From contig JAUNDF010000010.1 of assembly GCA_030526225.1 (NCBI GenBank), forward strand, positions 1 through 32,000: 32,000 bases of DNA. Direction: 5' to 3'. The position numbers and the translations under genes are program-made. Position 1 is the first letter of the stretch. Every line of letters begins with the position of its first letter. Of this stretch, positions 2-25,946 are shown piece by piece. Origin of the DNA: Clostridia bacterium (lineage in GTDB: Bacteria; Bacillota; Clostridia; Christensenellales; Aristaeellaceae). The notes beneath the pieces were generated by a model. That model searched no databases. It was given only the letters and a program-made list of their open reading frames with translations, and was not told where the DNA came from.

Positions 2-61
2 CCCACCGCAGAGCCCACCGCAGAACCTACTGCCGAGCCTACTGCTGAACCCACCGCCGAA
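2..61 (+). repeat. In-frame 12-nt tandem repeat (5 units) encoding a (PTAE)n linker
   Basis: Units cccaccgcagag / cccaccgcagaa / cctactgccgag / cctactgctgaa / cccaccgccgaa were read directly. The repeat probably continues upstream of the window. Confidence 0.8.
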
Positions 62-661
62 CCCACCCCCACCAACGTGCCGGTCATCAGCGTGCCTGTG
101 GATGCCGTTGTGACCGTGGGCGAAACCACCTTCGGCGATGATGTGTCCCCCGAAGCCGCCGAGCTGCTGAAGGAGCTGGCACAGGCCAAGGCCGAAGTTG
201 CCTTCTACGAGGAGCAGGTTGCCGCCGCCACCGCACAGGCCCTGACCCATCTGGACCCCATTGTGGATGACATCGAAGCACAGCTGGCCGCCGGTGCCGA
301 CTGGGCTGACCTGACCGCCATCTACAACGAGGATCCCGGCATGATGGCCGGCCGCGCCACCGCTGAAACCGGCTACGCTGTCTGCGCCGACATGACCGGC
401 TTTGACAAGCCCTTCGTGGATGCCGCCATGGCCCTGGCCAATGTGGGTGATGTATCTCCCCGCACCGCCGGTGCATACGGCTACTACCTCATCAAGTACG
501 TCAGCGATGTTGCCGAAGGCCCCGTGGCCCTGGACGAAGTCCGCGCCGAACTGGAGCCCGAGGTGCTGACCACCAAGCAGGAAGCCGAATACGAAGCCAA
601 GGTTGCCGCCTGGATTGCCGAAGCTTCCGTCACCAAGGACCTGAAGGCCCTGGAGAACTAA
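2..661 (+). CDS. PpiC/parvulin-type peptidyl-prolyl isomerase (PrsA/SurA-like), C-terminal part. The frame is open to the left window edge.
   Basis: The frame of ORF 77..661 stays open back to position 2 (PTAEPTAE... linker). The C-terminal region has a parvulin-like signature (GDVSPRTAGAYGYYLIKYVSD). Stop TAA at 659-661, followed by a terminator hairpin. Confidence 0.65.
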   Translation, partial: PTAEPTAEPTAEPTAEPTAEPTPTNVPVISVPVDAVVTVGETTFGDDVSPEAAELLKELAQAKAEVAFYEEQVAAATAQALTHLDPIVDDIEAQLAAGADWADLTAIYNEDPGMMAGRATAETGYAVCADMTGFDKPFVDAAMALANVGDVSPRTAGAYGYYLIKYVSDVAEGPVALDEVRAELEPEVLTTKQEAEYEAKVAAWIAEASVTKDLKALEN

Positions 662-1294: not shown

Positions 1295-1507
1295 ATGAAA
1301 ATCAGCGCACGCAATCAGCTGAAGGGCACCGTTGTGGCCATCGAAGAGGGTGCCGTGAACGGCATCGTCAAGATTGACATCGGCGCCGGCAACGTCATCA
1401 GCTCCACCATCTCCATGGTCTCCATCAAGGAACTGGGCCTGGAGGTCGGCAAGACTGCTTATGCCATCGTGAAGGCTACTTCCGTGATGGTCGGCGTGGA
1501 TGACTGA
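1295..1507 (+). CDS. mop: Molybdopterin-binding protein Mop (single TOBE/Mop domain, 70 aa)
   Basis: MKISARNQLKGTVVAIEEGAVNG...AIVKATSVMVGV is the typical Mop/TOBE sequence. RBS aaaaggag at 1276-1283. Stop TGA. Confidence 0.85.
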   Translation: MKISARNQLKGTVVAIEEGAVNGIVKIDIGAGNVISSTISMVSIKELGLEVGKTAYAIVKATSVMVGVDD

Positions 1508-1542
1508 TTCATGAAGGCTTGAGGCTCCGCAACGCCTCGGAG

Positions 1543-1575
1543 GACTGCTCTCGGGAATGAGGGCAGTCTTTTTTA
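1543..1575 (+). terminator. Rho-independent terminator after mop
   Basis: Stem gactgc...gcagtc followed by tttttt (1569-1574). The GC-rich to AT-rich composition break lies immediately downstream. Confidence 0.7.
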
Positions 1576-1747
1576 TTGTGATATTTGATTTGTCTAGTAT
1601 AAGTTTTTAAGAAGCAGAATTATTGATTGATAAACAAAAGGTTTATACAGTCCAATAGATGTTGGAGTGAAAGTGTTTTACTTTTGTAAATTAATATGAT
1701 ATTATATTAATAAATAAACAAGTAATTGCGTTAAGGAGAGAGAAATA

Positions 1748-3100
1748 ATGAAAAAACATCTCATCGCAACATGTACAATTGTAGTTTTCTCCATCCTGAT
1801 ATTGTCTTCCGTTTGTTTAGCAGACAATGTTGTTAAAGCGTCATTCGTTCATAATGGAATGGAGTTTAAACTATTTTAGAGTGGAACAGCAGAACTTGTA
1901 AAAGTTCGAGATACGCGGTGCGTTAATTTTGAAATACCATCAACAGTAGAAGGATATCTTGTTACAACTATAAATAGCGCTGCTTTTTCAGATTGTAAAT
2001 CATTGGATATATTAATTATTCCGGATTCGGTAAGTTAGATAAATGGAAATCCGTTTGTTGACTGCAAGAATGTTCGATTTAGCATATCCGCACAACATCC
2101 TGCGCTTGCTGTTATCGATGGCGTTTTATTCTCAAAACCGGATAAAAGACTGATTTCGTATCCGGCATGGAAAGATAATAAAACATATGAAGTGCCGGAT
2201 GGAATTGTGACAATTGGTGATTGGGCTTTTGCTTATAATGAAAGATTATCAAGCATTATTCTGCCTAATACTGTAAAAACAATTGGAGAAAAGGCATTCA
2301 TATTTTGCAATAGACTATCTAAGATTAATCTGCCAGAGAGCGTAGAAACCATTGGGATAAATCCATTTTATGGATGCAACAAAGTTGATGTTAAAATAAA
2401 TAGCAAACAAGAGCACTATCTTGTGAAGAGTGGAGTGCTTATTTCAAAAAAAGATAGCAGAATGATTAGCTATCTGCTAGGTTCAACAAAAAAGTCTTAT
2501 TCCATACCTAAAAATGTTGAAGTTATTGGCGAGTATGCATTTTCTTGCAATGGTGACTTAAAGTCGATAGAAATGCCTAATAGCGTTAAAAAAATCTGTA
2601 AAGGTGCTTTTTTGGGATGCTATGATCTTCAAACGATTCGTCTTTCTGCTAACATCGAAATCATTGAAGAATAGCTTTTTTATAGCTGTCGTGAACTGAA
2701 AAGAATTGAAATTCCTCAAGGTGTGAAGGCGATTGGGAAAAGTGCGTTTGAAAATTGTGTATACCTCATAAGCGTAAAAATGCCAAATAGCTTAATATAG
2801 ATAGGAGATAGAGCCTTTGCTAACTGTAGTACCTTAACAAGTGTGAACGTTCCGTGCAATGTTACTACTATTGGATGGCGCGCATTTGAACATTGTACAA
2901 ATTTGGAAGAAATAATGATTCCTAAGAGCGTAAATAAAATAGCCTTCGATGCTTTTAAATATTGCGATAAAATAGTTGTGTATGTATAGCCTGATAGTTA
3001 TGCAGAATATGTCTTGCCACTTTCAGGTATACCTACCAACTATAAGGACACTGAAGTCCCTTTGACGAACTCAAGTGACTTTGGATGGCTTAAATAGTAA
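1748..3100 (+). CDS. Secreted BspA-type leucine-rich-repeat protein (450 codons) containing six in-frame TAG codons. It would be a pseudogene under the standard code.
   Basis: ATG at 1748 with RBS aaggagag. Signal peptide MKKHLIATCTIVVFSILILSSVCLA. About 12 repeats of IPxSVxxIGxxAFxxCxxL. I translated the single frame 1748-3100: the only interruptions are TAG at 1877, 2036, 2672, 2798, 2987 and 3095, and the frame ends at TAA 3098-3100. There are no frameshifts. GC is roughly 33 percent by eye. Confidence 0.6.
1877..1879 (+). other. In-frame TAG (candidate sense codon) in the LRR gene
   Basis: Context ...GMEFKLF[TAG]SGTAELV. In frame with ATG 1748 (offset 129). Confidence 0.55.
2036..2038 (+). 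other. In-frame TAG in the LRR gene
   Basis: IPDSVS[TAG]INGNPF aligns with LPESVETIGINPF of a sister repeat. Confidence 0.55.
2672..2674 (+). other. In-frame TAG in the LRR gene
   Basis: NIEIIEE[TAG]LFYSCRELKRIEIP. The repeat register continues across the codon. Confidence 0.55.
2798..2800 (+). other. In-frame TAG in the LRR gene
   Basis: MPNSLI[TAG]IGDRAFANC aligns with MPNSVKKICKGAFLGC. Confidence 0.55.
2987..2989 (+). other. In-frame TAG in the LRR gene
   Basis: Context KIVVYV[TAG]PDSYAEYV. Confidence 0.5.
3095..3097 (+). other. In-frame TAG immediately preceding the TAA of the LRR gene
   Basis: ...GWLK[TAG][TAA]. It is either a tandem stop or a final sense codon before the true TAA stop. 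Confidence 0.35.
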
Positions 3101-10171: not shown

Positions 10172-12424
10172 TTGGAGCATGTGTAGGCCGGTGTCACCGG
10201 GACCATCTATCGCAATGAGGACAACGGGTATACTATCCTGACTGCCCGGGCCGGGCGCAGCGAAATCACCGTGGTGGGGACGCTCCCTGCCCTGTCCCCG
10301 GGGGAGCAGTGCGTGTTCCATGGCGACTGGGTGGAGCATCCGCAGTATGGGCGGCAGCTGAAGTGCACGGGCTGTGAAATCAAAAAGCCCACCACCCTGC
10401 TGGGCATTGAGCGGTATCTGGGCTCGGGGCTGATTCGCGGCGTGGGCCCTTCCACCGCCAAGCAGATTGTGGAAACCTTCGGCGAGGAAACGCTGACCAT
10501 CCTCAGCGAGCATCCGGAGCGGCTGCAGGAGGTCCCCGGCATGGGGCGCAAGCGCTGGCGGGTGATTGCGGAAAACTTTCAGGAGCAGAACGCCATGCGG
10601 GAATCCATGGTGTTTCTGCAGTCCTACGGCATTTCCCCCAACCTGTCGGTAAAAATCAGCCGGCTGTACGGCGACAGGACCGCCGATGTGATTAAAAACA
10701 ACCCCTACCGCCTTTGCGAGGATTTGGAAGGCGTGGGCTTTCAGACGGCGGACCGCATCGGCATGGCCATCGGCATTGCCGCGGACAGCGAGTTCCGCAT
10801 CCAGTCGGCGCTGAAGTACATGCTGCGGGAGGCCTCCGTCTCCATGGGCCATGTGTATCTGCCCCTGCGGGAGCTGGTAACGAAAACCGCCCAGCTGCTG
10901 CGCACGGAGGAGGCGCTGGTATCCCGGCAGGTGAAAACGCTGATGCTGCGGCGGGACATCATCTGCAAGCAGGAGGAGGGCGAGGAGGACATCCGCGTGT
11001 ATCTCGCCGCCTTTGACAGCGCCGAGAGCGAGGTGGCCAAGCGCCTGTGCGAGCTGATTGCCTCCCTTGCCCGGGAAGAAAACCCCCAGGCGGAGCAGGA
11101 CATCGACCGGTTTGAAAAGCGCCACGGCATCCACTTTTCCGCCCAGCAGAGAAAGGCCATCACCATGGCCATGGAGATGGCCCTGAAAAACCAGATCGTG
11201 GTGATTACCGGCGGCCCCGGCACCGGCAAAACAACGATTATCAACTGCATCATCTCCCTGCTTTCGCGCGATGGGGAGGTGAAGCTGTGCGCCCCCACCG
11301 GCCGCGCCGCCAAGCGCATGACATAGGCCACCGGCGTGGAGTCGAAGACCATCCACCGCCTGCTGGAATACGGCGGGGACGACGGCGCCTTTGCCCGGGA
11401 TCAGGATAACCCCATCGAGGGCGACTGCGTGATTGTGGACGAGACCTCCATGGTGGATTTGATGCTGATGCGCTCCCTGCTGCGGGCCATTGAGCCGGGG
11501 ACAAAGCTGATTCTGGTGGGCGATGCCGACCAGCTGCCCAGCGTGGGCGCGGGCAATGTGCTGGGGGATATCCTCGACAGCGGCATTGTGCCTGTGTGCC
11601 GCCTGACGGACATCTACCGGCAGGATGAACAGAGCCGCATTGTGGTCAATGCCCACCGCATCAACCGCGGAGAAATGCCCCTGCTCAACGAAAAGGGCAC
11701 GGATTTCTTCTTCGAGCGCAAGGATTCCTTTGCCCAGACGGCCCAGACCATTGTGCAGCTGATGACCAAACGGCTGCCCGCGTTTTTGAAATTCCCGGAG
11801 GATGAAACTGCGGACCGCGCCGTCCGGAGCATACAGGTGCTGGCACCGGCGAAAAAGGGCGAGTGCGGCGTTCTGGTGCTCAACACCATGCTGCAGGAAG
11901 CCCTCAATCCCCCCGCGGCGGACAAGCCGTTTATCAAATACGGCGAAACCATCTTCCGCCTTGGGGACAAGGTGATGCAGACCAAAAACGACTACCAGAT
12001 TGAGTGGCGCAAGGAAAGCCGCCTTGGCTGGGAGGACGGCAAGGGCGTGTTCAACGGCGACGTGGGCTACATCACTGCGGTGGATGAGGAGGAGCACTGC
12101 CTCACGGTCCTCTTTGATGAGGAAAAGGAAGTGGTGTACCAGTCCGCTCAGCTGGAAAATCTGGATCTGGCCTACTGCCTGTCGGTGCACAAGAGCCAGG
12201 GCAGCGAGTTCCCGGTGGTGATTATGCCCGTGGTGGGCGGCTCCAGCATGCTTTTGACCAGAAACCTGTTCTACACCGCCCTGACCCGTGCGCGGAGTCT
12301 GGTGGTGCTGGTGGGCCGGGAGGAAATCATCCGGCAGATGACGCAGAACAATCACATTCAGAAGCGGTACACCTCTCTGGCAGGGCGGCTGCGCATGATG
12401 GGTGCGCTGCTGCCCAAAGAGTGA
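10172..12424 (+). CDS. recD2: RecD2-type ATP-dependent DNA helicase (750 codons) with two in-frame TAG codons
   Basis: TTG 10172 lies 9 nt after aaaaaggagg. The N-terminal GTIYRNEDNGYTIL motif lies between TAG 10184 and the first standard-code start. HhH region, Walker A ITGGPGTGKTT, APTGRAAKRMT[TAG]ATGVESKTIHRLL, and helicase motifs through SVHKSQGSEF. ORFs 10271..11326 and 11336..12424 share one frame. Stop TGA. Confidence 0.8.
10184..10186 (+). other. In-frame TAG (candidate sense codon), recD2 codon 5
   Basis: ttg gag cat gtg TAG gcc ggt gtc acc ggg acc atc tat cgc aat gag gac aac ggg. The conserved N-terminal peptide follows it. Confidence 0.55.
11324..11326 (+). other. In-frame TAG in recD2, at a position that is Glu in RecD2 homologs as I recall them
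   Basis: GRAAKRMT[TAG]ATGVESKTIHRLL, compared with the family pattern GRAAKR(L/M)(S/T)E.TG..A.TIHRLL recalled from memory. Confidence 0.65.
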
Positions 12425-15966: not shown

Positions 15967-16020
15967 TCAGATAGAATAAGCCCAAATTGGGCTTGTCAGG
16001 ATGTTTGGGAGGTGTGTCGG

Positions 16021-16419
16021 ATGGCGCGGGAAAACCGCATCACCCTGTGTCTGCCGGGGCAGGCCGATCATTCACTGGTGCTTCGCACCATGGTAGGCGG
16101 CGTGGCCTATCTGTATGACCTGAGCGTGGATGACATGGATGATCTTCGCGCCGCCGCGGATGAGGCCTTCGACTGCCTGCTGCATCAGGGCAGCACGGTG
16201 GAAAGCATCACCACCGACATTCTCCGGGAGGATGGCCGCGTATCAGCATTGCTGACGGCTGCCTTCGGGGAAAAGCAAACATCCGCCCCCGGCGAAGAGG
16301 AGAACGAAATCTCGCTGGCGGTACTGAAAACCATCATGCCCGATGTACAGCTGACCGTGGACGGGGAGGGCCGGATTGCGGCCATCCGCCTGACGCTTTC
16401 CACCGGGAGGGCATCATGA
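16021..16419 (+). CDS. Small SpoIIAB/RsbW-like anti-sigma-factor-like protein with a degenerate ATPase N-box
   Basis: ATG 16021 lies 8 nt after GGGAGG. AADEAFDCLLHQG resembles the anti-sigma kinase box E-A-x-x-N-A-x-x-H-G, but Cys replaces the Asn. The stop overlaps the sigma-factor start (ATGA). Confidence 0.45.
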   Translation: MARENRITLCLPGQADHSLVLRTMVGGVAYLYDLSVDDMDDLRAAADEAFDCLLHQGSTVESITTDILREDGRVSALLTAAFGEKQTSAPGEEENEISLAVLKTIMPDVQLTVDGEGRIAAIRLTLSTGRAS

Positions 16420-17144
16420 TGGAAGAAGACATCAATGCCCTGCTGGCAGGGTATGCCCGTGCACCGGAGCCGGAGACGCTGAACCGGCTGACGGAGCATT
16501 TTCTGCCCCTGTCGCGGCAGGTGGCGGCCAAATTCTATGGGCGCGGTGCCGAAATGGAGGATTTGCGGCAGGTGGCAGCCATGGCGCTGATGAACGCCAT
16601 CAAACGCTTCGACCCTGACAAGGGGGTCAAGTTTACCACCTTCGCCGTTACCACCATGGCGGGTGAGGTGCGCAACCACCTGCGGGACAAGGCCGCGCTC
16701 ATTCGCCCCTCCCGTGATTTGCGGGAAAAGGCGGCGCAGGTGAACAAAATCACCGACCGGCTGGCCCAGCAGCTGCTGCGGGAGCCTACCGTGCGTGAAA
16801 TTGCCGGCGAAATGAACATCACCCCCGATGAGCTGCTGCACATCCTCGACAGCCGGGAAAAGCTGGAGGTTGCCTCCCTGAACGAAATCTCCGGGGAGGA
16901 TGACCGCGCCCTTGAGGAGCGGCTTGGTCAGACCGACGGCGGCTACGAGGCCGTGGAGCAGCGGGACATGTGGCAGTGGATTATGCGCCAGCTGACCGGG
17001 CAGGAGCAATTGCTGGTCCGGCTGCGTTATGTATAGCGGATGGGTCAGCGGGAGTGCGCCGCCAGAATGAACCTGTCGCAAATGCAGGTCAGCCGCATGG
17101 AGCGGCGCATGCTGGCGCGCATCCGCAGCAAAATGACATCATAA
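16416..17144 (+). CDS. Group-3 sigma-70 family factor (SigF/SigG/SigB-like, 242 aa) with one in-frame TAG before region 4.2
   Basis: Region 2 (DLRQVAAMALMNAIKRFDPDKGVKFTTFAVTTMAGEVRNHLRD), region 3, then LLVRLRYV[TAG]RMGQRECAARMNLSQMQVSRMERRMLARIRSKMTS. The region 4.2 HTH is encoded only after the TAG. Stop TAA at 17142-17144. Confidence 0.8.
17034..17036 (+). other. In-frame TAG (candidate sense codon) in the sigma factor
   Basis: cgt tat gta TAG cgg atg ggt cag. The HTH follows in the same frame. Confidence 0.65.
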
Positions 17145-17174: not shown

Positions 17175-18392
17175 ATGTACAGAGAAACACCGCCGATGGC
17201 ACCGCAGCCGAGGAAGAAGCTGCATGCTGTGCAGATTGTCATCATCGTGGTGGCCGTGCTGTTTGCCCTGTGGTACCTGTACAAAACCCTGGTGCCGGCG
17301 GCAACGCCCTATGCCACCATACAGGCAGGCACCCTGGGTGCAAGATACTCCGGCGATGTGCTCATCGTCCGGGATGAGACCCCCTATGATGCCGAGGGCG
17401 TGAGCAGCATCGAGTATGTGGCGGAGGAGGGCAAGGTGGCCCGCAACCGCTCCACCATCTGCAATGTGTTCTCCACCGGTTATTCCACCAAGGAGACCAC
17501 CGCCCTGCAGAACTACCGCGACCAGATCAAGCAGTATCAGCTGCAGCTCATCGGCGAGGAAACCACCTACGATGCCCGCATGGAGCGGCTGGACAGCGAT
17601 GTTTTGTAGCTGGCCCGGGAATTCCGCGCCATGATTGCCGGTCAGCCCGGCAATTTGCTCAATCAGGAAACGCTGCTCAATGCCGCCATCGGCTCCCGTC
17701 AGCTGTATCTGAAGAAAAAGTACGGCTCCGACCAGCGCCTCAGCCGGTTGTATGACGACGAACAGAGCCAGCTGCAGCGCATTGCCAGCTGGACCAAGCA
17801 GTATACCGCCGCGGGCGAGACCATCGTCAGCTTTTATACCGACGGCTATGAATACGGCCTGACCGCCTCCAACTTCCGTGATTTTACCCCGCAATAGGTC
17901 CGGAAGATGATTGCCGGTCAAAAGCCGGAGCTGACCACGGCCCAAAAGGGCAAGACCACCATCTACCGCACCGTGCGTGACGGCGTGTGGTACGCGCTGA
18001 TGCTGGTGAAGGACTCCACATGGAATCCGGTGGAGGGCCAGACCTACGAGCTGAAGCTGGAGCGGGTGGAAAACACCCGTGTGCTGGCCACGGTGGAATC
18101 CTTTACAAGAAACGGCAATGAGCTGCTGGTGCGCCTTGTGGTGCATGACTCCGTGGAGCCGGTGCTGTACATGCGCACCTGTCAGGCAGAGCTGGGCGAT
18201 TATGTGCAGAGCCTGATGGTGCCCAAGCGCGCCATCTATACCCAGGACAACATGACCGGCGTGGTGGTGCTGGACGGTGCCAATCAGCTGTTTGTGCCGG
18301 TGAACATCCTTTTGGAGGACGGCGGCAATGTGTACATCTCCGCCATCACCCAGGGTCTGCTGTATGAAGGGCAGACCGTGATGCTGTTCTGA
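17175..18392 (+). CDS. HlyD-like membrane-anchored protein (405 codons) with two in-frame TAG codons
   Basis: N-terminal TM anchor (VQIVIIVVAVLFALWYLY). ORFs 17175..17609, 17631..17897 and 17907..18392 are in one frame, separated only by TAG codons. Beta-barrel-like C-terminus. The family call is from general resemblance only. Stop TGA. Confidence 0.6.
17607..17609 (+). other. In-frame TAG in the HlyD-like gene
   Basis: Context RLDSDVL[TAG]LAREFRAMIAG. Confidence 0.5.
17895..17897 (+). other. In-frame TAG in the HlyD-like gene
   Basis: Context NFRDFTPQ[TAG]VRKMIAGQKPEL. Confidence 0.5.
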
Positions 18393-20368: not shown

Positions 20369-20644
20369 ATGCTGCTGTTGATGCGCATTCTCCGCATGGC
20401 ACTGCTGGTGTATGAGCTGCTGCTCATCGCCTATGTGCTGCTCAACTGGCTCAAGCCCGCCGCCAACCGCTGGACGGAGCTGCTCCGCCGCGTGACCGAG
20501 CCGGTGCTCACGCCCCTTCGGGTGGCCATTGTTTCCCGGCTGCCGGCAAGGTATCAGCCCATTGACTGGTCCCCTGTGGCGGCACTTGCGATTTGTGAAA
20601 TCATCGGCTGGATTCTCGGCAGAATCGCCGCCATTTTCGCATGA
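20369..20644 (+). CDS. yggT: YggT/YlmG-family membrane protein
   Basis: 91 aa with two TM helices. VYELLLIAYVLLNWL...TEPVLTPLR is typical of YggT. The stop overlaps the ylmH start (ATGA). Confidence 0.85.
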   Translation: MLLLMRILRMALLVYELLLIAYVLLNWLKPAANRWTELLRRVTEPVLTPLRVAIVSRLPARYQPIDWSPVAALAICEIIGWILGRIAAIFA

Positions 20645-21390
20645 TTAAGGATACTGCACAGCAGCTGAAGCTGCGGCTGAATCAGCTGGCCCAGCGGGCC
20701 GACAGGCTGTACTGCGCTGTCCCCGGCCGCTTTCTGGCGGCAGAGGAGCAGGCCATGGCACAGGATGCCGCCCGGGATAACGGGGTGGATGTATCCTTTT
20801 GCGGCGGCTGGAGTGATGCATAGCGGGTGCAGGTGTGCTTTCATCCCTTCGGGGAGGAGCCGCTGTTTACCGCCCAATGGGTGGAAGCCAAATGGAACAG
20901 CCGCTTTTCCACCGCGGCCCACAGCGATTTGCTGGGGAGCCTGATGGCCCTTGGCATGGAGCGTGCCTTTCTGGGCGACATCATCGTTGAGGAAGGCCGG
21001 GCACTGGTCTGCGTGATGCCCGAGCTGGCGGCTCGTCTGCCGGTGGAATGGACAAGCGCGGGACGCACGCCCATCTGGGTATCGGTGCTGGGCAGCCCGC
21101 CTGAAATTGCCCCGCCTGAAGGGAAGCAGCTGCGCGACACAGTGCCGTCCCTGCGGCTGGACTGCGTGGTGGCAAGCGGCATGAAGCAATCCCGCACCAA
21201 AGCGGCATAGCTGATTCGTCAGGGGCTGGTGATGGTCAATCATCGCCCGTAGGAACGCTGTGACCGGCTGCTGCAGGAGGGCGCACTGGTATCCATCCGC
21301 CATTTCGGCAGAATCCGTCTGCTGGAGGTGGGGGAACCCACCCGCAAGGACCGGCTGCCCGTGGTGCTGGAAATATTCGCGAAGAAATAA
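20641..21390 (+). CDS. ylmH: YlmH-like S4-domain RNA-binding protein (249 codons) with three in-frame TAG codons
   Basis: GGWSDA[TAG]RVQV matches the YlmH GGY..AER motif. The S4 domain reads LRLDCVVASGMKQSRTKAA[TAG]LIRQGLVMVNHRP[TAG]ERCDRLLQEGALVSIRHFGRIRL. All segments share one frame. Stop TAA at 21388-21390. Confidence 0.75.
20821..20823 (+). other. In-frame TAG in ylmH at the conserved Glu of GGY..AER
   Basis: GGWSDA[TAG]RVQVCFHP, compared with B. subtilis YlmH GGYDRAERKRA (recalled from memory). Confidence 0.65.
21208..21210 (+). other. In-frame TAG in the ylmH S4 domain
   Basis: Context SRTKAA[TAG]LIRQGLVMVN. Confidence 0.6.
21250..21252 (+). other. In-frame TAG in the ylmH S4 domain
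   Basis: Context VNHRP[TAG]ERCDRLLQEGALVSIRHFGR. Confidence 0.6.
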
Positions 21391-21433: not shown

Positions 21434-21913
21434 ATGCAGGTTACCATTGAAATGATTGAGAGCAAAGAGTTTGATTTTGTTCCCCAGGGCTACAAGCCCG
21501 AGCAGGTGGATGAGTTCCTGGATGACATCATTGACGAAATGATTAACATGCAGGATGAAATCCGCGATCTGCAGGGCAAGCTGGCCGCAGCCAACGCCGC
21601 CCCCAAGGCCGCTCCCGTGGCTGCAGAGCCCCGCGCCACCGATACCAACACCGCCGCCTTCCGCGAGATTCTGGAAATGGCACAGCGCGTGAAGGACGAA
21701 ACCATCACCAAGGCACAGACCGAGGCTGATGCCATCGTGGCCAAGGCCAACGAACAGGCCAAGGCACAGCTGGGCAGCCTGATGGAAGACAAGGCCAAGC
21801 TGGAAAAGCAGGTGGCCGCCCTGAAGGAAGCCGCCTCCGCTTACCGTGCCAACTTCGAGGCACTGCTGGCCGCCCAGCAGGATGCCATCGAAAAGGCCAC
21901 CGATCTGTTCTGA
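21434..21913 (+). CDS. divIVA: DivIVA-domain cell-division protein
   Basis: IESKEFDFVPQGYKPEQVDEFLDDI is the DivIVA N-terminal lipid-binding domain, followed by a coiled coil. Stop TGA. Confidence 0.9.
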   Translation: MQVTIEMIESKEFDFVPQGYKPEQVDEFLDDIIDEMINMQDEIRDLQGKLAAANAAPKAAPVAAEPRATDTNTAAFREILEMAQRVKDETITKAQTEADAIVAKANEQAKAQLGSLMEDKAKLEKQVAALKEAASAYRANFEALLAAQQDAIEKATDLF

Positions 21914-21921
21914 TGCTTCAA

Positions 21922-21952
21922 GACCTCTGCCCGCTGCGGCAGGGGTCTTTTT
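21922..21952 (+). terminator. Rho-independent terminator after divIVA
   Basis: gacctctgcc / ggcaggggtc stem followed by ttttt. Confidence 0.75.
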
Positions 21953-22068
21953 CCATGCACGCAGGCAGGAAAAATGGGGCTTTGCATCGAATAGCATAAA
22001 TTGGATGAGTATCGTCCGTTGAATCCTGCAAATGCACATGATGGTTCATCATAGAAAAGAGGTATTTT

Positions 22069-23169
22069 ATGGCAGACAAGCAGCAGACAACCTGCCCCCG
22101 CGTGGATATCGGCGGTCAGGCAGTGATGGAAGGCGTGATGATGAAGGGCCCCGATGCCATCGCCATCACCGTCAGACGGCCCGATGGCTCCATGGCCGTG
22201 CGCTATGAGCCCTATGTGGCCCTGAGCAAAAAGCACAAGTGGATGGGCTGGCCCGTCATCCGCGGCGCCGTGAACATGGCCAACATGCTGGTCATGGGCA
22301 TGCAGACGCTGGAAACCTCCACCAAGATGCTGGGCATCATGGATGAGGAGCCCACCAAGTTTGAAAAATGGCTGGCAGAGAAGCTGGGCAAGGGCATCGA
22401 CAAGGTGGTCATGGGCATGGCCATGATTCTGGCCGTGATTCTGTCCGTGGGCCTGTTTATCCTTGTGCCCACCGCCGTGGAAAAGGGCATCATTGCCTGG
22501 ACCGGCTCCACCACCGCCGCAACGCTGGTGGGCGGCGTTGTGAAGATTCTGCTGCTCATCGGCTACATGATTTTCTGCGGCATGGTGCCCGATGTGCGCC
22601 GCACCTTCCAGTACCACGGTGCCGAGCACAAGACCGTGTACTGCCACGAGCATGACCTGCCCCTGACCCCCGAAAACGCCAAGGGCTTCACTACCCTGCA
22701 CCCCCGCTGCGGCACCGCATTTTTGCTGATTGTGTTCGTCATCTCCATTCTGATGACGCTGCTCATCGGCCGGGGCATCACCGTGTTTATCTGGCGGTTC
22801 CTGTTCCATCTGGCCATGCTGCCGGTGATTGCAGGCGTCAGCTACGAGGTGCTGAAGGGTCTGGCCCACAGCGACAGCAAGCTGGCCCGTGCGCTCCGCT
22901 GGCCCGGACTGCAGATGCAGCGCCTGACCACCCGCGAGCCCGACGAAAAGATGCTGGAATGCGCCATCGTTTCCATGAATGTGGCCCTGTACGGCCTGCC
23001 CAAAAATGCGCCCAAGAACCGGGACGGCTTCACCATCCTGCACAGCTACAAGGAATCCGAAAAGGGCTATGTGTTTGAAAAGCCCGAGGTGAAGCCGGTT
23101 GCGGAAGCAGCTGAAGCTGTTGCCGAAGAAGCAGATGAAGAAGCGCCTGTTCAGGAGCCCCAGGCATGA
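22069..23169 (+). CDS. DUF1385-family membrane protein (commonly a prmC neighbour)
   Basis: IGGQAVMEGVMMKG...YHGAEHKTV...HPRCGT are hallmarks of DUF1385. The stop overlaps the prmC start (ATGA). Confidence 0.85.
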   Translation: MADKQQTTCPRVDIGGQAVMEGVMMKGPDAIAITVRRPDGSMAVRYEPYVALSKKHKWMGWPVIRGAVNMANMLVMGMQTLETSTKMLGIMDEEPTKFEKWLAEKLGKGIDKVVMGMAMILAVILSVGLFILVPTAVEKGIIAWTGSTTAATLVGGVVKILLLIGYMIFCGMVPDVRRTFQYHGAEHKTVYCHEHDLPLTPENAKGFTTLHPRCGTAFLLIVFVISILMTLLIGRGITVFIWRFLFHLAMLPVIAGVSYEVLKGLAHSDSKLARALRWPGLQMQRLTTREPDEKMLECAIVSMNVALYGLPKNAPKNRDGFTILHSYKESEKGYVFEKPEVKPVAEAAEAVAEEADEEAPVQEPQA

Positions 23170-24008
23170 CACCCAGACAGCTGATTCGCGAAACGGCGAA
23201 GCAATTTCAGGCGGCGGGTGTGCCCGATGCCCTGCTGGATGCATCCCTGCTGCTGGCCCACCTGACCGGCATGGAGCCCATGGCCCTGCGGCTGGATGAG
23301 GATACACAGCTGGCGGAGGACATCCTCCGGCAATACGCACAGCTGGCCCGGCGCCGCTGTCAGCGCGAACCCTTGCAATATCTGACCGGGGAAGTTGTCT
23401 TCCTCGGTCGTGTTTTCCATGTGGACAGCCGCGTGCTGATTCCCCGGCCCGAAACGGAGCTGCTGGTGGAATTAGCCGCATCAGAGCTGAAAAAGCACGG
23501 TGCGGGTGCCAAGGCCCTTGACCTGTGCTGCGGCAGCGGCTGCATCGGCGTATCCCTTGCACTATAGGTGCCGGGGAGCGAGGTGCATCTGTCCGATTTA
23601 TCTGCCGATGCACTGGCGGTGACCGGCATCAACGCCGAAGCCCTTGCGGCAAAGGTACAGCTGCATCACGGCGATATGTTTGCGCCGCTGGAGGGTGAAC
23701 GGTTCCACGTGCTGGTGTCCAATCCGCCGTATATCCCCGCGGAGGATTGCCGTCAGCTGCAGGCAGAGGTCCTGCGGGAGCCCATGACCGCCCTTGACGG
23801 CGGCGAGGACGGGTACGATTTCTACCGCACCATCGCAAAGGAAGCGCCCCGTCATCTGCTGCCCGGCGGTGCCCTCTTTCTGGAGATCGGCTGGGATCAG
23901 GCCGAAGGGGTGTGCCGCCTGCTGAGGGAAGCCGGCATGGTGCAGGTGACAAGCCATCAGGACTACAACGGCATTAGCCGCATGGTGGAAGCCCACATGG
24001 CTGATTGA
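23166..24008 (+). CDS. prmC: Release-factor glutamine N5-methyltransferase PrmC/HemK (280 codons) with one in-frame TAG
   Basis: EPLQYLTGEVVFLGRVFHVDSRVLIPRPETE, SAM motif DLCCGSGCIGVSLAL[TAG]VPGSEVHLSDLS, and the catalytic NPPY (VSNPPYIP), which lies downstream of the TAG. ORFs 23166..23567 and 23568..24008 share one frame. Stop TGA. Confidence 0.8.
23565..23567 (+). other. In-frame TAG (candidate sense codon) in prmC
   Basis: gca cta TAG gtg ccg ggg. It aligns with the E of E. coli PrmC ALASERPDCEI (recalled from memory). Confidence 0.62.
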
Positions 24009-24038
24009 GTTTGAACGACGCAAAAGGATGAAGAAGCA

Positions 24039-25091
24039 ATGAAAACGCAAGTGCTGGGCCCCGCGCAGGAGAATCTGCAGGCCGCGGCTGAGCTGCTCCG
24101 AAGCGGGCAGCTGGTGGCCTTTCCTACGGAAACGGTGTACGGTCTGGGTGCCAATGCCTTTGACAAGGATGCGGTGCTGTCCATCTTTGCCGCCAAGGAC
24201 CGCCCTGCAGATAATCCCCTGATTGTGCACGTGTGGTGCCGGGAGCAGCTGAAGGACATCTGCGAGGTATCCGAAACGGCAGAAAAGCTGATGGATGCCT
24301 TCTGGCCCGGCCCGCTGACCATCCTGATGCCGCGGAAGGAATCCATCCCCCTGGAGGTGACCGCGGGTCTGCCCACGGTGGCGGTGCGCATGCCCTCCCA
24401 TCCGGTGGCGGCGGCACTGCTGAAGGCTTGCAATGTGCCCGTGGCGGCACCCAGCGCCAATCGCTCCGGCAAGCCCAGCCCCACCTCTGCACGGTATGTG
24501 TATCAGGATATGGATGGCCGCATCCCCATGATTATCGACGGCGGGGACTGCGATGTGGGCCTTGAGTCCACGGTGCTGGATATCGGCCACGGCAAGCCCT
24601 GCATCCTCCGTCCCGGCGGCGTGACCCGGGATATGCTGGAAAAAGTGCTGGGTGAGGTGGATGTGGCCGGCAGCGTACTGCGCCCCCTGCAGCAGGGCGA
24701 GGTGGCCCTGTCCCCCGGCATGCGCTACAAGCACTACGCCCCCAACGGTCAGGTGGTGCTGGTGGAAGGGGAGGAGCAGCAGGTGGTTGGGGCACTGCGC
24801 CGCTTGTGTGAAGAGGCCGCGCAAAACGGTCACAAGAGCTGTGTGATGTGCTTTACCGAGCATGCGGAACAGCTGGCGGATTGCCATCCCTTCGATCTGG
24901 GCAGCATCCATCGCCCGGAGGAGACCGCCCGCTGTCTGTTTGATACCCTGCGCCGGCTGGATGACGTGGGCATGGATGCCATCTTCAGCGAGGTACTGCC
25001 CCCCGAGGGTATCGGCCTTGCGGTGATGAACCGTCTGGGCCGCGCTGCCGGCTTCCATTCCGTGCAGGCGGAGGATATCCTGCGGGACTGA
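24039..25091 (+). CDS. tsaC: L-threonylcarbamoyladenylate synthase (TsaC/Sua5/YwlC type, with a Sua5 C-terminal domain)
   Basis: VAFPTETVYGLGANAFD, KDRPADNPLIVHV, PGPLTIL, APSANRSGKPSPT. Stop TGA. Confidence 0.9.
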   Translation: MKTQVLGPAQENLQAAAELLRSGQLVAFPTETVYGLGANAFDKDAVLSIFAAKDRPADNPLIVHVWCREQLKDICEVSETAEKLMDAFWPGPLTILMPRKESIPLEVTAGLPTVAVRMPSHPVAAALLKACNVPVAAPSANRSGKPSPTSARYVYQDMDGRIPMIIDGGDCDVGLESTVLDIGHGKPCILRPGGVTRDMLEKVLGEVDVAGSVLRPLQQGEVALSPGMRYKHYAPNGQVVLVEGEEQQVVGALRRLCEEAAQNGHKSCVMCFTEHAEQLADCHPFDLGSIHRPEETARCLFDTLRRLDDVGMDAIFSEVLPPEGIGLAVMNRLGRAAGFHSVQAEDILRD

Positions 25092-25160
25092 CGGGAAGGA
25101 AATCACGCCCATACGCGTTATATCATTGAAAAGCAAAGGGAAAGGCAAAGGAGGTGCGGC

Positions 25161-25946
25161 ATGAAGAGAATCATCTGGTTGATGCTGCTTGTGATGCTGC
25201 TTTTGTCCCCTACCGCGCTGGCCGATGATGTTTGCACCGTGGCGGATATCCGCGCGGCTTCGGTGATTACCACCGCCGACAATTACCTGACGCTGTCCAT
25301 CCCCGCCGCTCCCGGGCAGGATGTCACCGTCTCTGTGTATGATGACAGCGGCCTTGTGTGGCAGCAGTGCCGGGAAGGCGTGGCCGGGCCCTACATGACC
25401 GATGAAATCTACCTGAAGGTCAAGGGCGGCGACACCGCGTACCATGTGGCGGTCAATCTGGGCGGCGAGGAGATTGCTTTTGATGTCATTCGGCAGATTG
25501 GCCGGCTGAAGGGCAACGCCGCCTGCACCGATGGCTATCCCATTTCCGGCATGTCCGGCGCGGATACATGGCAGAGAGCCGCCATCATCCCTGCAGCGGA
25601 TGGGGTGACCTATGTGCCTGTGGTGACCGCCAACGGCCGCGAAATCGGTCAGGCTTGCCTGCAGGTTTCCGGCGGACAGCTGACCGTGTTCATCAGCGTA
25701 TATGACGGCGAAACCGCCATCGACAGCGGCGAGGTGCTGGCGGCGCGCTCCCGCGGGGAAGCCGCGGCTCTGGGCCGCAAGCAGTTTTCCGGCATCAGGG
25801 CAGGCTTGGGTCAGCCCGTTGACCTGTCCGGCTGCGGCACTGCGGCGGTATGGGTGAAGCTGAAGGTTTCCTACAACCCGGCCAACGCCGCCCAATATAC
25901 CCCCAATGATGGATACTGGCAGAAGCAGTGGCAGGGGATGGATTAA
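25161..25946 (+). CDS. Secreted hypothetical protein
   Basis: GGAGG RBS. Signal peptide MKRIIWLMLLVMLLLSPTALA. No recognisable family. Stop TAA. Confidence 0.6.
   Translation: MKRIIWLMLLVMLLLSPTALADDVCTVADIRAASVITTADNYLTLSIPAAPGQDVTVSVYDDSGLVWQQCREGVAGPYMTDEIYLKVKGGDTAYHVAVNLGGEEIAFDVIRQIGRLKGNAACTDGYPISGMSGADTWQRAAIIPAADGVTYVPVVTANGREIGQACLQVSGGQLTVFISVYDGETAIDSGEVLAARSRGEAAALGRKQFSGIRAGLGQPVDLSGCGTAAVWVKLKVSYNPANAAQYTPNDGYWQKQWQGMD

Follow-up and report, generated by a model that had tools for sequence, protein, structure and literature searches.

We analyzed a stretch of 32,000 nucleotides (nt) from an uncultured gut Clostridia bacterium of the family Aristaeellaceae (assembly GCA_030526225.1, contig JAUNDF010000010.1, positions 1 to 32,000 of the forward strand), which is referred to below as the window. 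It contains a sigma-factor gene interrupted by an in-frame TAG, and in-frame TAGs also occur in five other genes. The observations described here point to UAG being read as glutamate (Glu) in this genome, following a probable loss of release factor 1 (RF1).

A sigma-factor gene with an in-frame TAG

The sigma-factor gene is composed of the following features.

16416..17144, + strand: SigB/SigF/SigG-family sigma-factor gene, 242 amino acids (aa) with TAG as sense, TAA stop, Pfam regions 2, 3 and 4
17034..17036, + strand: in-frame TAG, codon 207, in the short linker from region 4.1 to the region 4.2 helix-turn-helix (HTH)
17037..17141, + strand: region 4.2 HTH, 35 codons (RMGQRECAARMNLSQMQVSRMERRMLARIRSKMTS); the Sigma70_r4 match reaches aa 237

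The gene starts with ATG at 16416. As the original prediction stated, the TAG at 17034-17036 is followed by 35 sense codons and then by TAA (17142-17144). A Pfam search of the read-through product, with X at the TAG, gave Sigma70_r2 at aa 26-93, Sigma70_r3 at aa 104-168 and Sigma70_r4 at aa 190-237, all above the Pfam cut-offs. The Sigma70_r4 match (31.8 bits vs. a cut-off of 24.1) spans the TAG, crossing codon 207 and continuing into the downstream segment. The HTH of region 4.2 lies wholly 3' of that codon, which confirmed that region 4.2 is encoded only past the TAG. Regions 2 and 3 had been predicted to end at ...LLVRLRYV, immediately before the TAG; the site was placed correctly, but aa 190-206 (...QEQLLVRLRYV) already form part of region 4.1 instead of closing region 3. 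The NCBIfam model TIGR02980 (SigBFG) scored 209.6 bits, under its cut-off of 234.35, and the equivalog models for SigF, SigG and SigB scored far under their own cut-offs. The nearest solved structure is the SigB-type 8X6G_H, which has Glu at the TAG position; the corresponding residue in 1L0O_C is Lys.

A collection of 5.8 billion proteins yielded 438 homologs of the sigma factor with a length of about 249 aa. Region 4 (PF04545) was detected in all 119 listed homologs besides the window's own database entry, P0001, which is a standard-code call of 206 aa with regions 2 and 3 only and the sole shortened entry among the homologs listed. None of the orthologs ends at the TAG position, and they cover 95-99% of the read-through product. 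The identity to relatives is 69% after the TAG vs. 48% before it, so the homology of the post-TAG segment is beyond chance. A protein that stopped at the TAG would be without the HTH that binds the -35 element, and a working sigma factor therefore requires decoding of UAG. The earlier claim that a TAG-ended sigma factor would be non-functional thus agrees with its lack of the HTH, with the full length of the orthologs and with the strong conservation of the downstream segment. We concluded that the gene probably gives a normal group-3 sigma factor of full length, a deflationary outcome.

In-frame TAGs in other genes and their absence in relatives

In total, 15 in-frame TAGs were found in 6 of the 32 genes in the window, and no in-frame TAA or TGA was present. 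The five other TAG-bearing genes are listed below.

10172..12424, + strand: RecD2 helicase gene with a TTG start; TAGs at 10184 (codon 5) and 11324 (motif Ia)
17175..18392, + strand: HlyD_2-family gene; TAGs at 17607 and 17895, both spanned by Pfam HlyD_2 (aa 13-389)
20641..21390, + strand: gene for a YlmH-like RNA-binding protein (Pfam YlmH_RBD); TAGs at 20821, 21208 and 21250
23166..24008, + strand: prmC, release-factor glutamine methyltransferase (PrmC_N and MTS domains); TAG at 23565, crossed by MTS
1748..3100, + strand: gene for a secreted BspA-like LRR_5 protein; TAGs at 1877, 2036, 2672, 2798, 2987 and 3095

Reading TAG as sense joined same-frame pieces of open reading frames (ORFs) in the RecD2, HlyD_2, YlmH and PrmC genes. 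Pfam domains continued through TAGs in the sigma factor, RecD2, HlyD_2 and PrmC proteins; in RecD2, both AAA_19 and AAA_30 cross the second TAG. The first RecD2 TAG lies close to the TTG start at 10172, which is located 8 nt 3' of an AAGGAGG ribosome-binding site and corresponds in the alignment to the initiator Met of the relatives. The N-terminus of the relatives reads MEQVEASVLGT and that of the window (TTG)-E-H-V-[TAG]-A-G-V-T-G-T. The base following the TAG is G or C at all nine TAGs outside the LRR gene (the core TAGs). In 4/4 genes tested, conservation after the last TAG was equal to or greater than that before the first TAG. Since the post-TAG sequence is at least as conserved, translation must continue past the TAGs.

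Relatives were collected in a scan with one genome per species, which gave 80 loci from uncultured Clostridia, mostly of the animal gut (Christensenellales, Aristaeellaceae, Ca. Egerieenecus and Ca. Limiplasma). The sigma factors of these loci are at most 57% identical to that of the window; the protein collection gave nothing closer than 58% identity to the sigma factor and 63% to PrmC. Twelve genes are kept in the same order (RecD2-GNAT-aspartokinase-TauE-small ORF-sigma-HlyD_2-YggS-SepF-YlmG-YlmH-DivIVA), which indicates that the window is a segment of a bacterial chromosome. No internal stops were found in the TAG-bearing genes of the 80 relatives. We considered the possibility that some relatives share the code and rejected it; every stop symbol in the alignments either marked the end of a gene or fell within a match of low identity. 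Moreover, 75 of 717 orthologs in the relatives (10.5%) end in TAG, and the relatives thus use the standard code. With 80 syntenic species free of internal stops, the TAG pattern is lineage-specific and not an alignment artefact. The 32 genes of the window end in TAA (17) or TGA (15) and never in TAG; at the rate of the relatives, 0/32 would be expected with a chance of about 0.03 in this small sample.

The LRR gene differs from the core genes in several respects. It lies in an island (1500-3100) of 34-36% GC, compared with 58% for the window, downstream of a tRNA-Thr gene (825-900). Its frame of 450 codons contains no TAA or TGA vs. about 25 expected by shuffling. The six TAGs in 450 codons amount to a frequency ~10 times that of the core genes, and the gene has 20 GAA and 4 GAG codons. 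Its homologs carry PF13306 (LRR_5), with a best identity of at most 41%. The gene may have been acquired from an organism with a TAG-sense code, or may have evolved for a long time under such a code. The gene ends in AAA TAG TAA (3095-3100), where the standard code would stop at the TAG. The adjoining TAA, reached one residue later under the proposed code, may be a relic backup stop.

The residue at UAG and the prfA slot

To estimate which amino acid UAG stands for, we tabulated the residues of orthologs in the alignment columns of the nine core TAGs.

RecD2 codon 5: E in 33/33 orthologs
RecD2 motif Ia: E in 33/33 orthologs
YlmH aa61: E in 69/70 orthologs, Q in 1/70
YlmH aa190: E in 50/70 orthologs
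YlmH aa204: E in 43/70 orthologs
HlyD aa241 (TAG 17895): E45 Q22 D7
HlyD aa145 (TAG 17607): Q27 T13 E9 S9 D7 A7
Sigma factor aa207: D24 E21 H18 Q10 R7
PrmC aa134: A19 E7 G2 D2

Glu is the modal residue in 6/9 columns, and the codons of the relatives at the nine sites are mostly GAG or GAA. The log-odds sum over the nine columns was +24.9 bits for Glu, -7.0 for glutamine (Gln) and -8.9 for aspartate (Asp). The motif Ia column of RecD2 is also occupied by Glu in the structures 3E1S (RecD2) and 1W36_D (E. coli RecD) of the PDB.

We then compared the neighborhood of prmC with that of two relatives, L081 (a 194-kb contig) and L083 (Aristaeellaceae). The gene order in these relatives is rho-rpmE-DUF1385-prmC-RF-Sua5/TsaC, where RF is a release factor of 352-353 aa with PCRF and RF-1 domains, the RF1-type tripeptide P-V-T and the GGQ motif. 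We take the PxT tripeptide to be the mark of RF1 and SPF that of RF2. In the window, DUF1385 (22069-23169), prmC and tsaC (24039-25091) are 60-74% identical to their counterparts in L081 and L083, and the place of the release-factor gene is taken by a short spacer.

24009..24038, + strand: prmC-tsaC spacer of 30 nt, the slot of prfA (the RF1 gene) in the two relatives

No remnant of RF1 was detected in the window; the best tblastn match with RF1 had E = 0.23. The spacer (tgaGTTTGAacgacgcaaaagga...ATG) resembles the sequence from the RF1 stop to tsaC in the relatives (TGAacgaaagaagga...ATG). From this likeness, it appears that a deletion took out almost exactly the prfA ORF. On either side of the block (junctions at 21913-22069 and 25091-25161) the gene order differs: in the window DivIVA lies upstream and a gene for a secreted protein (25161-25946) downstream; in L081 and L083 rho-rpmE precede the block, and a gene for an SH3_3 protein and then rplM-rpsI follow it.

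Decoding of UAG and comparison with known systems

We think it likely that UAG became a sense codon for Glu throughout this genome after the loss of RF1 and that the sigma factor is made as a full-length protein. In the proposed sequence of events, the gene for RF1, the sole factor that reads UAG, would have been deleted, and former UAG stops would have been replaced by UAA or UGA. A Glu-charged tRNA with a CUA anticodon would decode UAG, and UAG codons would have reappeared by mutation, mostly at positions of Glu (GAG or GAA). The sigma factor would then be a constitutive full-length protein of 242 aa in which position 207 is occupied by Glu, or by some other residue tolerated there, and which needs no special regulation. 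This mechanism was drawn by analogy with the loss of RF2 in UGA-reassigned bacteria. The in-frame TAGs, the continuity of domains and orthologs across them, the lack of TAG stops, the Glu columns and the empty prfA slot are direct observations, whereas we infer that RF1 is absent from the entire genome, that the tRNA exists and which type it is, and how efficiently UAG is decoded. Many Firmicutes make Gln-tRNA via a non-discriminating glutamyl-tRNA synthetase, which accepts anticodons with C36 and G36 and may accept A36 more readily. Whether the final residue is Glu or Gln would hinge on recognition of the tRNA body by the amidotransferase.

Several points weigh against this interpretation. 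The evidence base is 32 kb of one contig, and the case rests on it: no closer relative, and hence no second genome with the same code, was found in the collection of 5.8 billion proteins, and the run index listed no sequencing run to confirm the base calls. The test on the missing TAG stops reaches a P of only about 0.03. RF1 could be encoded elsewhere in the genome; the gene order on both sides of the DUF1385-prmC-tsaC block is rearranged compared with relatives. The window is without a CUA-anticodon tRNA, its sole tRNA being Thr-GGT. Metagenome contigs were scanned for the conserved anticodon arm of tRNA-Glu with CUA, which gave one match that was not a tRNA; the arm sequence was modeled on tRNA-Glu from E. 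coli and B. subtilis, the 60 loci scanned having supplied no tRNA-Glu template, and this negative result is therefore weak. Three of the core columns (sigma factor, HlyD aa145 and PrmC) are not dominated by Glu, nor are the LRR columns, which are variable. The LRR columns are uninformative because of this variability and because the homologs are so distant; with them counted, the lead of Glu is still >30 bits by a rough estimate.

The unevenness of the columns bears on the possibility that UAG is a sense codon for Gln, pyrrolysine (Pyl) or Asp instead of Glu. Asp slightly exceeds Glu in the sigma column (D24/E21), HlyD aa145 is dominated by Gln and PrmC aa134 by Ala, and the usual meaning of a reassigned UAG is Gln in phages and Pyl in archaea. 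Against this, Gln, Asp and Lys have a count of zero in both invariant RecD2 columns, and at YlmH aa61 Asp and Lys are absent and Gln is found once. Given the lead of Glu over the other residues, and with no pyl or methylamine methyltransferase genes within the small 32-kb window, we judged a residue other than Glu to be quite unlikely. An origin of the TAGs in sequencing or assembly error (e.g., G-to-T damage), or in pseudogenes of a degenerating genome, would fit a pattern seen on a single contig in which one G-to-T change in GAG would yield most of the TAGs. In that case, however, TAA and TGA should also have arisen. Twenty core genes hold 279 GAG, 168 GAA and 17 GGA codons, and the chance that all nine core nonsense codons are TAG under random G-to-T change is about 0.01-0.02. 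Generic G-to-T damage was ruled out on this basis, since it would also have given TAA and TGA from the GAA and GGA codons and neither occurs in frame. Methylation-motif or systematic base-call errors were ruled out as well, the TAG contexts being without a common motif. No frameshifts are present, and the sequence downstream of the TAGs is fully conserved; the 35%-GC LRR gene combines six TAGs with a complete lack of the TAA and TGA codons expected by chance; and an error would leave the coincident loss of prfA and of TAG stops unexplained. Artefact or decay is thus a very improbable source of the TAGs.

UAG might also be decoded in an ambiguous or conditional manner, which comes close to the gate of the original prediction: RF1 would be encoded elsewhere, or decoding would be inefficient, and termination or stalling would compete with a suppressor tRNA. 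The supply of this tRNA would then set how much product the UAG-containing genes give, the sigma factor among them. The distribution of TAGs is consistent with such a scheme. The nine core TAGs are found in 5/31 genes, three of them in the 249-codon YlmH gene (at most 5 genes, permutation P = 0.026), and the genes for NrdD, flavoprotein reductase, flotillin, CoA-transferase and aspartokinase are long metabolic genes free of TAG, as would be expected for a poorly decoded codon. Methanogens that encode Pyl reportedly retain an ambiguous use of the amber codon (PMC12626013). In addition, the 100 nt after the sigma TAG (17034-17133) fold unusually well (-47.9 kcal/mol, z = -2.9), with a closing stem of GCGGAUG/CAUCCGC. 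However, the equivalent segments of 79 standard-code relatives had a median of -41.8 kcal/mol, and 17/79 were at -45 or lower; relative L003 reached -54.0 kcal/mol with CAC at the site of the sigma TAG. The other eight core-gene TAGs tested gave z values from +1.8 to -1.5. A fold that is matched in TAG-free relatives is not evidence for a recoding signal, and we rejected a recoding RNA element after the sigma TAG; the fold is probably a by-product of the GC-rich and Arg-rich segment that encodes the HTH. The affected genes also have no common theme, the prfA slot is empty and TAG stops are missing, all of which makes ambiguous decoding unlikely. A gate specific to the sigma factor, the further suggestion of the original prediction, is not supported, as 14 more TAGs occur in five unrelated genes of a window with no TAG stops and no prfA in its slot.

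Returning to full reassignment of UAG to Glu, several known systems resemble it. Peritrich ciliates (table 30) read UAR codons as Glu, and in TAG-recoded phages (table 15) TAG stands for Gln. The phages resemble the window in the use of in-frame TAG as sense in prokaryotic-type genes; in contrast to them, the window is a segment of a bacterial chromosome with 12 syntenic genes, and Gln is disfavored at its TAGs. The UAR-to-Glu eukaryotes (Blastocrithidia and peritrichs) share the proposed meaning of UAG as glutamate, but they reassign UAA and UAG jointly, via changes in eRF1, whereas UAA is still a stop in 17/32 genes of the window. Such a code is described for eukaryotes such as Blastocrithidia nonstop (PMC12153298).

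Among bacteria, all known stop reassignments concern UGA (PMC8629427; gTranslate 2026 preprint; PMC13462651), and their signature is the loss of RF2 together with an altered tRNA (PMC13462651). In the searchable literature, UAG has been reassigned only in phages (to Gln), in archaea and bacteria that use Pyl, and in eukaryotes. The case proposed here would follow the logic of the UGA-to-Trp/Gly bacteria (tables 4 and 25; RF2 lost), in which a stop became sense genome-wide, the cognate release factor was lost and conserved positions of housekeeping genes are affected. It differs in the codon (UAG) and, as proposed, in the factor (RF1) and the amino acid (Glu), and the region has a GC content of 58% and shows no sign of reduction. 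Genome-wide reassignment of UAG has been reported as a recent finding in archaea, to Pyl (gTranslate preprint). The UAG-to-Pyl systems of archaea and some bacteria likewise read through UAG in cellular genomes; they need pylTSBCD and place UAG in methylamine methyltransferases, whereas the TAGs here occupy conserved Glu columns, which are not Lys-like, in unrelated housekeeping genes. The engineered UAG-free E. coli strains from which RF1 was deleted (C321.deltaA and RFzero; PMC6207430 and PMC4434889) would be matched by the proposed case in the absence of RF1 and in the freeing of UAG. Those strains are synthetic; the window, if our interpretation is true, represents a natural counterpart in which a canonical amino acid has captured UAG. 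No earlier report of UAG-to-Glu reassignment in a bacterial chromosome was found in the searchable literature. We lean toward the stronger statement that a non-reduced, 58%-GC lineage of gut Clostridia has lost prfA by deletion and now reads UAG entirely as glutamate; this would be the first natural reassignment of the bacterial amber codon to a canonical amino acid.

If true, this free-living bacterium would show that capture of the amber codon is possible in bacteria, that it requires neither genome reduction nor low GC, and that the RF1-less state engineered in E. coli exists in nature. The altered code could also be a barrier to standard-code phages and to horizontal gene transfer. For annotation, gene callers that use table 11 shorten or split TAG-containing genes, as in the 206-aa call of the sigma factor. 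Since UAG reassignment barely lowers coding density, current code predictors would miss a UAG-to-Glu code; the authors of gTranslate say so for UAG-to-Pyl.

Upstream of the sigma-factor gene lies a small gene that may be connected with it.

16012..16419, + strand: ORF of 135 aa, possibly an anti-sigma partner; its stop overlaps the sigma start (ATGA)

The ORF is kept directly 5' of the sigma-factor gene in the relatives that cover this position. Its only family match was a weak one to the N-terminal part of RsbW (E = 6e-4); it had no Pfam match even at E <= 1, and no HATPase domain was detected in it. It is translationally coupled to the sigma-factor gene and may encode a divergent anti-sigma factor. 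A SpoIIAB-SigF operon was considered and rejected, because no HATPase domain could be detected in the upstream ORF, which is itself preceded by the TauE gene. At the left end of the window (2-661), a gene that enters from the edge codes for PTAE repeats in tandem (PTAEPTAEPTAE...) and, after them, a further domain, with long open frames on both strands.

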